This document shows, piece by piece, positions 54,697 to 60,034 of a DNA stretch of 64,000 bases (positions within the stretch are counted from its first letter, which is position 1; each line of letters opens with the position of its first letter). The DNA is from Escherichia phage OLB145: the sequence record MH992123.1. One strand, 5' to 3'. The translations under genes and the position numbers were made by a program. The notes under the pieces are model-generated. The model saw only the letters and a list, made by a program, of their open reading frames with translations, was not told where the DNA came from and did no database searches.

Positions 54697-57539
<2,843 letters not shown>

Positions 57540-58093
57540 TCCATCCTGTAGTGTACTCAGGCATATTAAGAGATAAATAGTAGTTTAACTGTTTACCATC
57601 CAGAGACTTCAAAATGAGCTTACAGGCTTCTACTTTGCCTCGTTTATTCTGAAGGCTTTTATATGCACTTAGAGTTCCAGAACCGACTTTACCATCAACT
57701 TGTATTTTAGGGTAGTCTTTGCCATTTCTGGAGAAAGCATTAAGAGATTCTTGTAACCAACGAGATGGTCTTGCAGGTCCAGTATTAACACCAGCATCTA
57801 CTAGTTTTTCTGTTACCGCTGGTGATACATCTGCAAACTTAACAAAGCCAGGCTTCAAGATGTAATCGTTGTAATAAATACTTGATGCCATTTCCTGAGT
57901 TAAGTTCTTCATTGAACCATCCCAGTTATACATCGACTCTAGTTCTTGCTTATGCTTTTGAGCAACCTGAATAGTTACACCATGATTAGTTTCACCTCCT
58001 GGGTCTTTGGGGTCATTAACGTATCCGCCCTCAACAGCAAATACAGCAGCAATGATTGCTGCAATAACCCCTCCAACACCACCAACTTTCTTC

Positions 58094-58357
58094 TTACTTA
58101 TTGCCACACCAATCCTCCTTTGGTTTCAAACGAACCAATCGGCAAATAATATTCAGCACAAAGAGTGCTATAGCAATGTTATTGCCATGTGGAATATCTT
58201 TGAGGATATGTTGGGGTAATGCAGAGAAAGAACTGGATAAGACATCCACACAAGAGAAGAACAATATTGCTAATGTGCTAATCTGAATAGATGCCCATTT
58301 CCAACAACGTTTCCAATTAGGAACCATTTCCACATGTTTGGTTAACTTGCGAACCAT
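58094..58357 (-). CDS. Candidate holin (two TM helices; possible dual start)
   Basis: Track ORF 58094..58423; GGGAGA RBS before Met23, second Met 10 codons later with basic residues between; two hydrophobic helices. Confidence 0.4.
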   Translation of the reverse strand: MVRKLTKHVEMVPNWKRCWKWASIQISTLAILFFSCVDVLSSSFSALPQHILKDIPHGNNIAIALFVLNIICRLVRLKPKEDWCGNK

Positions 58358-58674
58358 GCAAAAATCTCCCGTCTGGCAGCAGCCAGTATACCAATAATGA
58401 TACCTGCTCCGGCCCATACCCATTTACCAAACAATCCAGCACCAACAACTTTGTGTTTGATGGTAATGAACTCTTCAATAGTAGGGGCAGACTCAGCCAG
58501 AGACTTTTCTACATTCTCTAGTCGAGTGTCCATCTTATTAATAGACAGTTGAAGGTTACGTACAGCATCATCTAAATCTTGCCGAGATTTAGCATCACGG
58601 GCATTATTTTCGAAGAGTGTCTTCATACGTTCCTCCATTCGAGCTAGGAGCACCTCTACGGATTCATGACTCAT
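58342..58674 (-). CDS. Coiled-coil protein with single C-terminal TM anchor (holin/antiholin-like or lysis regulator)
   Basis: AAGGA RBS, ATG; soluble charged N-terminus then GAGLFGKWVWAGAGIIIGILAAA TM segment. Confidence 0.4.
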   Translation of the reverse strand: MSHESVEVLLARMEERMKTLFENNARDAKSRQDLDDAVRNLQLSINKMDTRLENVEKSLAESAPTIEEFITIKHKVVGAGLFGKWVWAGAGIIIGILAAARREIFAWFAS

Positions 58675-58702
58675 GCTAAATCCTTATCGAAAAAGCCGGG
58701 TA

Positions 58703-58723
58703 TCCCCGGCTCTGTTAGTCCTA
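58703..58723 (-). terminator. Rho-independent terminator (minus strand)
   Basis: AGCCGGG-loop-CCCGGCT hairpin followed by U-run on the minus strand. Confidence 0.45.
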
Positions 58724-58777
58724 ATGAACAGAGAGTGTGTTTATACACCCGTCAAATAGTACCGATATTTACTAGTA

Positions 58778-60034
<1,257 letters not shown>

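Follow-up and report, generated by a model that had tools for sequence, protein, structure and literature searches.

Probable timing pinholin and late holin genes at the front of the lysis cassette of an N4-type Escherichia phage

Two overlapping membrane-protein genes lie directly upstream of the endolysin gene of Escherichia phage OLB145 (MH992123.1). They most probably encode a lysis-timing pinholin, gp63, and a late-acting, dispensable holin, gp62, which together form the front of the N4 lysis cassette; we put the probability of this reading at about 0.85. N4 yields about 3000 phage per cell through delayed lysis, and to our knowledge the genes setting this delay were not known before a preprint of 2025-26. 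In that study, Awuah et al. of the Ramsey lab characterised both genes (bioRxiv 10.1101/2025.11.12.688109). The finding reported here is therefore real but already explained, and it adds no new N4 biology. Hole formation by both proteins, the timer role of gp63, the rapid-lysis mutations and the dispensability of gp62 come from the experiments in the preprint, and the present analysis contributes the anatomy, predicted topology, conservation and gene order of the pair, as well as the cases in which gp62 is naturally lost. New here are the appraisal of the proposed dual start of gp62, the breadth of the gp63 family and its conserved block, the endolysin and spanin neighbours of distant family members, the natural loss of gp62, and the analogy with XhlA. 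The right two genes were singled out from raw sequence.

Layout and conservation of the lysis cassette

The window, i.e., the whole stretch of 64,000 nucleotides that was analysed, is the genome of an N4-type phage, with 99.4-99.9% identity to N4 and 3HA13. Positions 56900-58800 share 99.4% nucleotide identity with the N4 reference, with 11 nucleotides differing. The amino acid sequences of gp63 and gp61 are those of wild-type N4 (gp63 versus NC_008720: zero amino acid differences), and the 87-aa gp62 does not differ from its counterparts in two N4-type phages, AlfredRasser and 3HA13. One of the 11 differences turns Trp into Arg in the upstream extension of the 109-aa gp62 ORF (codon 5), a stretch that is not conserved. 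The first-pass annotation had described two overlapping membrane ORFs upstream of the endolysin at 58094-58674, which was confirmed to the base on the minus strand. The cassette runs on this strand in the order gp63, gp62, gp61, gp60/gp60a:

58690..58713, minus strand: intrinsic-terminator-like hairpin between gp64 and gp63 (9-bp stem AGAGCCGGG/CCCGGCUUU, GAUA loop, U-tract)
58681-58685, minus strand: gp63 Shine-Dalgarno AAGGA, after the terminator-like hairpin (from the sequence)
58342..58674, minus strand: gp63 CDS, 110 aa, probable tail-anchored coiled-coil pinholin (ORF list, translation, phrog_5211 at E 3e-50; function from bioRxiv 10.1101/2025.11.12.688109)
58094..58357, minus strand: gp62 CDS, 87 aa, probable two-TM holin (DUF7940 / phrog_1356; start annotated in N4, AlfredRasser and G7C)
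57481..58107, minus strand: gp61 SAR endolysin, N-acetylmuramidase, GH108 + PG_binding_3, GTG start (Pfam and PHROG matches)
58030-58086, minus strand: gp61 signal-anchor-release domain, residues ~8-26 (hydropathy peak VGGVGGVIAAIIAAVFAVE, Gly/Ala-rich)
56997..57500, minus strand: gp60 i-spanin (phrog_6197 at E 1e-67; annotated in N4 and AlfredRasser)
57044-57307, minus strand: gp60a o-spanin, embedded in gp60, lipobox LLTSTIVGC (annotated in N4 and AlfredRasser)

The genes are tightly packed. gp63 and gp62 overlap by 16 nt (82 nt if the maximal 109-aa gp62 ORF is counted), and the 3' end of gp62 overlaps the GTG start of gp61 (58107) by 14 nt. The gp61 gene, 235 nt downstream of gp63, is preceded by the cassette's strongest Shine-Dalgarno (-11.6 kcal/mol), and a SAR endolysin likewise adjoins gp63 in nine relatives. 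The gp64-gp63 intergenic region (103 nt folded) gave a z of -3.7; comparable hairpins were found upstream of gp63 in Axy12 and Ea9-2, and a terminator is annotated in Paxi. No sigma-70-like site turned up in a consensus promoter scan of the coding strand from the terminator to gp63, and an Rfam scan of both strands returned a single chance-level match only. The plus-strand ORFs of the region, antisense to conserved genes, found no support. Judged by their family matches (phrog_5211 for gp63; phrog_1356 and DUF7940 for gp62) and their spread in tblastn, gp63 and gp62 are real genes and not chance ORFs.

The order of tail gene, terminator, gp63, gp62, SAR endolysin, spanins and portal is kept in G7C, KP8, Axy12, Ea9-2, Paxi and Holyagarpour, and gp62 and gp63 occur together in 60 of 65 genomes in the published survey (bioRxiv 10.1101/2025.11.12.688109). 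In Delftia phage RG-2014, the gp63 homologue is followed directly by a SAR-type endolysin, without gp62, and in Pseudomonas phage inbricus gp62 is broken by an in-frame stop while gp63 is retained. Such losses of gp62 in nature favour a minimal core made up of gp63 and a SAR endolysin.

Anatomy and translation starts of gp63 and gp62

The segments of the two membrane proteins, and the gp62 sites relevant to its translation, map as follows:

58489..58659, minus strand: gp63 residues 6-62, cytoplasmic heptad-repeat (coiled-coil) helix, predicted (heptad test; AlphaFold2 helix 3-61)
58450..58491, minus strand: gp63 residues 62-75 SAPTIEEFITIKHK, juxtamembrane block with the published rapid-lysis ('LIN domain') sites (conservation and preprint mutation list)
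58375..58449, minus strand: gp63 residues 76-100 VVGAGLFGKWVWAGAGIIIGILAAA, GAGxxGK motif and single Gly/Ala-rich C-terminal TM helix (hydropathy)
58366..58370, minus strand: gp62 Shine-Dalgarno GGGAG, 8 nt before the ATG at 58357 (duplex -7.4 kcal/mol)
58325..58327, minus strand: second in-frame Met of gp62, Met11 of the 87-aa and Met33 of the 109-aa form (translation)
58220..58294, minus strand: gp62 TM helix 1, residues ~22-46 of the 87-aa form (hydropathy; AlphaFold2 helix 12-45)
58127..58186, minus strand: gp62 TM helix 2, residues ~58-77 of the 87-aa form (hydropathy; AlphaFold2 helix 58-77)

The initial description of gp63 as a 110-aa protein with a coiled coil and a single C-terminal TM anchor is borne out by hydropathy and the heptad test. 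The heptads of residues 6-62 keep a single register (a/d = V L M M L N D R L V L I M L V L S), and their score was matched by 0 of 5000 shuffles. An AlphaFold2 model of low confidence (pLDDT 58) consists of helices 3-61, 66-78 and 82-109. Residues P64-K75 are invariant among 20 N4-like homologues, and all rapid-lysis sites of the juxtamembrane block are wild type in the window. Only 10 residues follow the TM helix. The topology prediction proposed as a check by the first-pass annotation gave one C-terminal TM helix with a predicted N-in/C-out orientation for gp63 and two TM helices with N-in/C-in for gp62. For gp63, this orientation is favoured by the positive-inside rule, because K+R is higher on the N-side in 38 of 43 family members (median post-TM tail, 8 residues). 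N4 gp63 itself has K+R = 2 on each TM flank, and prediction tools disagree according to the authors (bioRxiv 10.1101/2025.11.12.688109).

An internal start of gp63 at Met17 was also considered. In N4, it has a Shine-Dalgarno of -9.3 kcal/mol, stronger than that at the annotated start, and the GGAGGAA sequence in front of it derives from conserved Glu-Glu codons. Nearly all homologues carry Leu at positions 13 and 17, and the start was rejected as a family feature; initiation at Met17 is possible in N4, judging from the sequence, but not family-wide.

gp62 matches phrog_1356 'holin' at E 9.7e-28 and Pfam DUF7940 with 50.4 bits (cut-off 27). A protein-level homologue search returned only 4 proteins; its spread becomes visible by tblastn of phage genomes, which found it in 127 phage records. 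The two TM helices noted at the outset are seen both as hydropathy peaks at residues ~29-47 and ~61-79 of the 87-aa form and in a low-confidence AlphaFold2 model (pLDDT 60), a helical hairpin. The net charges of the N-terminus, loop and C-terminus (+5, 0 and +3) indicate an N-in/C-in orientation, which fits a class II-type holin layout of two TM helices, a short loop in the periplasm and basic termini facing the cytoplasm. Together with the family matches and the reported CCCP-triggered lethality, this layout sustains the original holin assignment.

The proposal of a dual-start holin/antiholin fared less well. Two close Mets do exist, at 58357 and 58327, separated by the basic stretch VRKLTKHVE, but the second has no Shine-Dalgarno before it (duplex +0.9 versus -7.4 kcal/mol at the first) and is not conserved, being Leu in G7C, KP8 and the metagenomic P0122 and P0123, and Met only in P0124. 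The preprint notes alternative starts of gp62 (bioRxiv 10.1101/2025.11.12.688109). The Shine-Dalgarno of the first start sits within conserved Arg-Arg-Glu codons of gp63, and GGAG occurs at matching spacing before gp62 in G7C, Axy12 and Ea9-2. With this site inside the last gp63 codons, gp62 is predicted to be translationally coupled to gp63. The gp62 ORF is open upstream to 58423 (109 aa). Of 7 phages, 5 keep this 22-codon extension open; it is absent in Paxi and Holyagarpour. The extension is non-conserved and rich in Cys, Trp and His, has only weak Shine-Dalgarno sites (-3.1 and -3.6 kcal/mol) and carries the Trp-to-Arg change relative to N4; its ATG/GTG codons are a by-product of invariant Lys-Trp-Val-Trp codons of gp63. 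A conserved 109-aa product is thus unlikely on these sequence grounds.

Lysis timing and competing explanations

A single preprint supplies the functional evidence, with plasmid expression levels and with hole sizes inferred from complementation; there, gp63 is described as the lysis-timing pinholin carrying rapid-lysis (lysis-inhibition-defective) mutations and gp62 as a non-essential, late-triggering large-hole holin (bioRxiv 10.1101/2025.11.12.688109). A plasmid gp60-63 cassette lysed E. coli at about 25 min; lysis came 20 min later when gp63 was removed, and its timing was unchanged when gp62 was removed. Expressed alone, gp63 killed >99% of cells without endolysin and with holin-typical irreversibility, and lethal depolarisation was reported in a CCCP assay. 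It complemented the phage 21 pinholin defect, supported lysis only with SAR endolysins (S21 versus lambda S complementation) and also released the unrelated phage 21 SAR endolysin. For gp62, lethality was triggered by CCCP, and soluble and SAR endolysins were both slowly released; co-expression with gp63 in a SAR-endolysin background gave faster, synergistic lysis. Six rapid-lysis alleles fell within gp63 residues 62-72 (S62F, T65I, I70T/N, T71A, I72L), and none of >60 rapid-lysis isolates carried a gp62 allele. N4 deleted for gp62 was viable and began to lyse about 1 hour before wild type; plasmid gp62 did not complement this early lysis, and excess gp62 left timing unchanged. Phage deleted for gp63 were recovered only with compensating gp61 SAR-domain mutations, and trans complementation failed for both deletion phenotypes. 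The SAR endolysin function of gp61 and spanin complementation by gp60/gp60a were reported as well, and earlier thesis work cited there had named gp63 an activator of gp61 (all bioRxiv 10.1101/2025.11.12.688109).

With these results, the following sequence of events is the most likely. gp63, comprising a cytoplasmic coiled coil of ~75 residues, a juxtamembrane block, one TM helix and a periplasmic tail of ~10 residues, would build up in the inner membrane, presumably oligomerising through the coiled coil, and would then open small depolarising holes at a set time. Depolarisation would free the membrane-tethered SAR endolysin gp61, leading to degradation of the wall, after which the gp60/gp60a spanins would disrupt the outer membrane. 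The two-TM, N-in/C-in gp62 would trigger far later, would be able to make large holes and probably backs up lysis or, as we infer, helps the exit from lysis inhibition. During N4 lysis inhibition, gp63 would be held inactive by a presumed inhibitor acting via the cytoplasmic juxtamembrane block; the conserved block is a concrete target for finding the pinholin inhibitor.

The first-pass annotation cast gp62 as a dual-start holin candidate and gp63 as a possible antiholin or lysis-timing regulator. In its strict form, with gp62 the true dual-start holin and gp63 regulating without forming holes of its own, this explanation can appeal to the non-canonical, tail-anchored coiled-coil topology of gp63, to the clustering of rapid-lysis mutations in gp63 and to the annotated holin family of gp62. 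However, gp63 kills on its own and rescues a pinholin defect, its deletion delays rather than advances lysis, gp62 is dispensable and is missing or interrupted in RG-2014 and inbricus where gp63 is kept, and the second gp62 start has the weaknesses given above. The explanation has largely been refuted already, and we regard it as extremely improbable. What stands of the earlier view is that gp63 sets the time of lysis and is the target of N4 lysis inhibition, with the rapid-lysis mutations clustering in it; it is, however, a hole-former and not an inhibitor, given its lethality alone and the delay caused by its deletion. The obligate two-component holin, in which gp63 and gp62 would be harmless alone and lethal together like PBSX XhlA/XhlB or SPP1 gp24.1/gp26, is if anything even harder to credit. 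Its strikingly parallel architecture next to an endolysin, with possible internal starts in both genes, a weak gp63 match to the XhlA-type phrog_1193 (E 8.6e-4) and the synergistic lysis on co-expression with a SAR endolysin speak for it, but it is already contradicted by the lethality of each N4 protein singly, and the cassette lyses normally without gp62, which two relatives either lack or carry in broken form. A profile-profile probability of 17% between the gp63 and XhlA families, over 25 coiled-coil columns, also weighs against it.

A less remote, though still unlikely, alternative is that gp62 mainly acts as an antiholin or modulator that restrains gp63 and so establishes or maintains lysis inhibition, with its own holes being secondary. 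The early lysis of gp62-deleted N4, the co-occurrence in 60 of 65 genomes and the coupled translation through a 16-nt overlap and a shared Shine-Dalgarno/coding region would agree with this. Yet the early lysis was not complemented and excess gp62 did not shift timing, the rapid-lysis isolates yielded no gp62 allele, removal of gp62 from the plasmid cassette had no effect on timing, and lysis with a SAR endolysin was accelerated by co-expression with gp63. Should one of the two proteins hold lysis back, gp62 is the better candidate on these data. Phage Mu gp25 offers the comparison for a releasin-type extraction of SAR endolysins, and gp63 could in principle be such an activator, extracting the endolysin by direct interaction instead of acting as a generic pinholin. 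It functions with SAR endolysins only, was called an activator of gp61 in the thesis work, adjoins a SAR-type endolysin even where gp62 is missing, and its deletion required compensating mutations in the gp61 SAR domain. This explanation is nonetheless very unlikely, as the unrelated SAR endolysin of phage 21 is released by gp63 too, and gp63 kills without any endolysin, with the irreversibility typical of holins.

The gp63 family and comparison with known systems

gp63 matches phrog_5211 at E 3e-50, its residues 1-110 aligning with profile positions 1-110 of 112, and no holin family in Pfam, NCBIfam or PHROGs matched it. It was found in 147 phage records by tblastn, and its homologues number 394 in 90%-identity clusters and form 173 clusters at 50% identity. 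The family signature, present in N4 gp63, is a PTxxEF...K...GAGxxG(K/R)xxW block followed by one C-terminal TM helix; across 43 distant members, P64 is conserved in 100%, E68 in 91%, G78/A79/G83 in 95% and W87 in 98%. Among the genome contexts of five distant members examined, one member (L015) adjoins an endolysin and two spanins and another (L010) a muramidase, and three were too short or uninformative. The uncharacterised bacterial family DUF1515 (PF07439, ~113 positions) aligns with distant members almost throughout. N4 gp63 itself had no match to this Pfam family, and 8 of the 43 distant members matched at E up to 0.01 (best 6.5e-5); scores of individually inspected members, 17.4-21.1 bits, were all below the 22.2-bit gathering cut-off. 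Near full-length alignments were obtained for P0215 (21.1 bits) and P0238 (profile positions 3-102).

We tentatively suggest, as a possibility short of an even chance, that gp63 represents, as its first characterised member, a wide and so far unnamed class of pinholins with a tail anchor, a coiled coil and a single TM helix, comprising at least 173 clusters at 50% identity, in which the family-wide juxtamembrane block would serve as a general cytoplasmic gate for the triggering time. Such a class would reach non-N4 phages and prophages, possibly with continuity to DUF1515, and if true, lysis inhibition by a cytoplasmic signal would be open to many phages beyond N4. For annotation, it may be useful that the family stretches well past N4-like phages. 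Within N4-like genomes, the label 'tail length tape-measure protein' is routinely given in error to gp63 relatives.

The closest system is coliphage N4 gp63/gp62 itself, with the same genes, gene order, overlaps and neighbouring SAR endolysin and spanins, and no functional difference. The phage 21 pinholin S21 68/71 with its SAR endolysin R21 is the prototype of the same logic, in which depolarisation releases the SAR endolysin. S21 combines two TM helices with an N-terminal dual start and lacks a coiled coil, whereas gp63 pairs a single C-terminal TM helix with a cytoplasmic coiled coil of 75 residues. S21-type features (two TM helices, a removable first helix, sequence similarity) were absent from gp63, which has no sequence or topological likeness to S21 and yet substitutes for it in vivo (bioRxiv 10.1101/2025.11.12.688109).

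PBSX XhlA/XhlB and SPP1 gp24.1/gp26 also place a C-terminal-TM coiled-coil protein and a two-TM holin by the endolysin, and both of their genes contain alternative starts internally. gp63 has the XhlA-type architecture of an N-terminal coiled coil, a single C-terminal TM helix and a two-TM holin partner. No match to PF10779 (XhlA) was found, and phrog_1193 (XhlA-type) gave a weak match in 3 of 43 members. Homology was rejected after hhalign against an XhlA/SPP1 gp24.1 alignment gave the 17% probability cited above, and we keep XhlA/XhlB as an architectural analogue rather than a detectable homologue for this reason. The Bacillus proteins are harmless alone and mutually needed, whereas N4 gp63 and gp62 each kill alone and gp62 is dispensable; unlike N4, these systems serve Gram-positive hosts without SAR endolysins or spanins.

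Like lambda S107/S105, gp62 has two in-frame Mets near a basic N-terminus. The lambda starts are two codons apart, unlike those of gp62, which are 10 codons apart, the second having no Shine-Dalgarno and no conservation. No T4-type antiholin family (RI, RIII) appeared among the gp62 and gp63 matches in Pfam, PHROG and NCBIfam. In phenotype, N4 resembles T4 lysis inhibition (holin T; antiholins RI and RIII), with delayed lysis, larger bursts and rapid-lysis mutants mapping to the holin, but the two have no proteins in common. In T4, the regulators target a holin domain in the periplasm; in N4, every rapid-lysis change found within the lysis cassette maps either to the gp63 juxtamembrane block, on the cytoplasmic side, or to the gp61 SAR domain.

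Layout and transcription of the lysis region

The 1.9 kb at 56900-58800 shows 99.9% identity to Escherichia phage vB_EcoP_3HA13 and 99.4% to coliphage N4, and all genes of the lysis region lie on the minus strand. With the N4 gene names, the features in transcription order are:

60031-58778, minus strand: gp64, tail protein, first in transcription order
58675-58777, minus strand: gp64/gp63 intergenic region, 103 nt
58690-58713, minus strand: strong terminator-like hairpin (9-bp stem, GAUA loop, U-tract)
58674-58342, minus strand: gp63, 110 aa
58366-58370, minus strand: gp62 Shine-Dalgarno sequence GGGAG, duplex -7.4 kcal/mol, within the conserved Arg-Arg-Glu codons of gp63
58357-58094, minus strand: gp62, 87 aa, with the ORF open back to 58423 (109 aa)
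58107-57481, minus strand: gp61, 208 aa, GTG start
57500-56997, minus strand: gp60, with gp60a embedded at 57307-57044
after gp60, minus strand: portal gene gp59

The first-pass annotation had placed two overlapping membrane ORFs upstream of the endolysin at 58094-58674, and this was confirmed: the interval is bounded precisely by the gp62 stop codon and the gp63 start codon, and both are real genes. The overlaps are 16 nt for gp63/gp62 and 14 nt for gp62/gp61. The gp61 protein combines GH108 and PG_binding_3 with a signal-anchor-like N-terminus, and gp60 and gp60a are spanins. Only 11 nucleotide differences from the N4 reference (0.6%) were found across the lysis region. The gp63 and gp61 proteins have no amino-acid difference from N4, and therefore all published rapid-lysis positions are wild type in the window. 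Compared with the 0.6% in the lysis region, gp64 (58778-60031, minus strand) carries 26 differences (2.1%), all synonymous: 25 affect the third base of a codon and one is silent at the first base. This pattern points to very strong purifying selection or to a recombination boundary.

The hairpin at 58690-58713 lies between gp64 and gp63, immediately ahead of the gp63 Shine-Dalgarno sequence. Similar hairpins were found upstream of gp63 in the N4-like phages Axy12 and Ea9-2, and a terminator is annotated at that place in Paxi. No sigma-70-like promoter was found downstream of the hairpin, so the lysis cassette may be transcribed by read-through or from an N4-specific late promoter. A second terminator-like stem (14 bp, then a T-run) at 57432-57462 on the minus strand, inside the i-spanin TM-helix coding region of gp60, probably just reflects Gly/Leu-rich coding.

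The gp63 and gp62 proteins and their start codons

The predicted coiled coil and single C-terminal TM anchor of gp63 were borne out. The hydrophobic residues of positions 6-62 keep a single unbroken heptad register, whose score was matched by none of 5000 shuffles, and hydropathy revealed one hydrophobic stretch, the Gly/Ala-rich residues 76-100 (VVGAGLFGKWVWAGAGIIIGILAAA), followed by RREIFAWFAS and nothing more. The AlphaFold2 model has helices at 3-61, 66-78 and 82-109 with low confidence (pLDDT 58). The protein matches phrog_5211 (E 3e-50), and N4 gp63 falls within no Pfam family. When 1.84 billion representative proteins were searched with a profile, 173 gp63-family clusters reached an E-value of 0.001 or better, almost all of them 100-150 aa long and sharing the gp63 layout. 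All of 43 diverse members have P64; E68, G78, A79, G83 and W87 are conserved in at least 90% of them, and the consensus PTxxEFxxxKxxVxGAGxLGRxLW precedes the TM helix. The published "LIN domain" mutations therefore fall where the most highly conserved block of the wider family begins. Lys+Arg residues are more numerous on the N-side of the TM helix than on the C-side in 38 of the 43 members (means 3.3 vs 1.6), with a median of 8 residues after the helix; N4 gp63 has 2 on each flank. The flank charges of the family are thus stronger support for an N-in/C-out tail anchor than those of N4 gp63 by itself. Distant members gave near full-length matches to DUF1515, a possible relative of the family, that fall just short of its threshold (e.g., 21.1 vs 22.2 bits).

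In public records, gp63 homologues are commonly mis-annotated as "tail length tape-measure protein", and the label is "RIIB lysis inhibitor" or "virion RNA polymerase" for the matching features of some records. One protein (P0034), sharing 69% identity with gp63, comes from a 2.76-Mb contig recorded as Enterococcus faecium; an N4-like gene is unexpected in that host, and either contamination or misassembly may account for it. An unannotated gp63-like fragment (tblastn match H103; 58.5% identity to residues 23-87) at positions 1-195 of the T4-like, 160-kb Salmonella phage SKML-39 (NC_019910.1) may have arisen by chimeric assembly or contamination.

The two TM helices proposed for gp62 agree with two hydropathy peaks and with an AlphaFold2 helical hairpin (12-45 and 58-77, pLDDT 60), and its net charges (N-terminus +5, loop 0, C-terminus +3) fit a predicted N-in/C-in topology. 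It matches phrog_1356 "holin" (E 1e-27), and its match to Pfam DUF7940 exceeds the cut-off. The conserved start is the ATG at 58357; GGAG at equal spacing also precedes it in G7C, Axy12 and Ea9-2. Both Met codons of the proposed dual start are present, with the basic VRKLTKHVE between them. No Shine-Dalgarno sequence precedes the second (58327; duplex +0.9 kcal/mol); G7C, KP8 and two metagenomic homologues have Leu at this position, and one further homologue has Met. The sequence therefore lends no support to a dual-start holin/antiholin, and that proposal is weak. In the upstream 22-codon extension, the Shine-Dalgarno sites are weak (-3.1 and -3.6 kcal/mol) and the ATG/GTG codons are a by-product of the invariant Lys-Trp-Val-Trp codons of gp63. 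The extension peptide is unconserved and missing from Paxi and Holyagarpour; a Trp-to-Arg substitution in it between N4 and the window is silent in gp63. In gp63, Met17 (58626, minus strand) has a GGAGGAA Shine-Dalgarno sequence of -9.3 kcal/mol in N4 vs -6.0 at the annotated start, but almost every homologue has Leu at positions 13 and 17. A 94-aa product from Met17 is plausible in N4.

Roles in lysis and natural loss of gp62

The roles of both genes have been studied experimentally (bioRxiv 10.1101/2025.11.12.688109). The gp60-63 cassette lysed E. coli in ~25 min; lysis was unchanged without gp62, 20 min later without gp63, and slow and gradual without both. Alone, gp63 killed >99% of cells, and it complemented a defect in the phage 21 pinholin, whereas a defect in the lambda holin was not complemented. 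gp62 was lethal only late or upon CCCP and harmless before; once triggered, it slowly released both soluble and SAR endolysin. Among >60 spontaneous rapid-lysis isolates, six alleles fell in gp63 residues 62-72 (S62F, T65I, I70T, I70N, T71A, I72L), two in the gp61 SAR domain and none in gp62. The phage tolerated gp62 deletion, lysing ~1 h earlier (not complemented), and gp63 deletion was obtained only with compensating gp61 mutations. In the authors' model, gp63 is a pinholin and master timer whose inhibition constitutes lysis inhibition, and gp62 is a canonical holin that acts late and may bring the cell out of inhibition.

The CCCP lethality and endolysin release, together with the phrog_1356 match, support the assignment of gp62 as a holin. 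For gp63, the proposed role in lysis timing, with a link to N4 lysis inhibition, holds, but the antiholin role does not: gp63 is the hole-former that is regulated. If either protein restrains lysis, gp62 is more likely than gp63 to do so, because the gp62-deleted phage lysed earlier, though uncomplemented. The gp63/gp62 finding is real and well read, yet already explained for this very phage.

Searches with tblastn found gp63 in 147 phage records and gp62 in 127. The order tail gene, terminator, gp63, gp62, SAR-type endolysin, spanins, portal is shared by G7C, KP8, Axy12, Ea9-2, Paxi and Holyagarpour and broken in three relatives. Delftia phage RG-2014 (L019, 2091-2099) lacks gp62, with 8 nt between the gp63 homologue and a SAR-type endolysin; in Pseudomonas phage inbricus (L020, 2118-2370), gp62 has an in-frame stop past the first TM helix, the remainder still being in frame; Burkholderia phage HN03 retains a divergent 82-aa partner. 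The experiments and these natural cases point the same way: gp63 with a SAR endolysin forms the core, and gp62 can be dispensed with. For distant gp63 members outside the N4-like phages, gene context was read from three contigs, the remaining ones being too short to judge. One member follows an endolysin and two spanin-like genes (L015), a second is one gene away from a muramidase (L010), and a third stands at the end of a prophage, following a tail-fibre gene.

Comparison with Bacillus two-component holins

Bacillus XhlA/XhlB and SPP1 gp24.1/gp26 are the closest architectural precedent for gp63/gp62; the preprint (bioRxiv 10.1101/2025.11.12.688109) mentions neither XhlA nor DUF1515. Homology of the gp63 family to XhlA was rejected, as profile-profile comparison gave only 17% probability. 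Like the N4 pair, both systems join a C-terminally anchored coiled-coil protein to a two-TM holin, and both have internal starts in the two genes. However, the Bacillus proteins are harmless singly and lethal together, whereas N4 gp63 and gp62 are each lethal alone.
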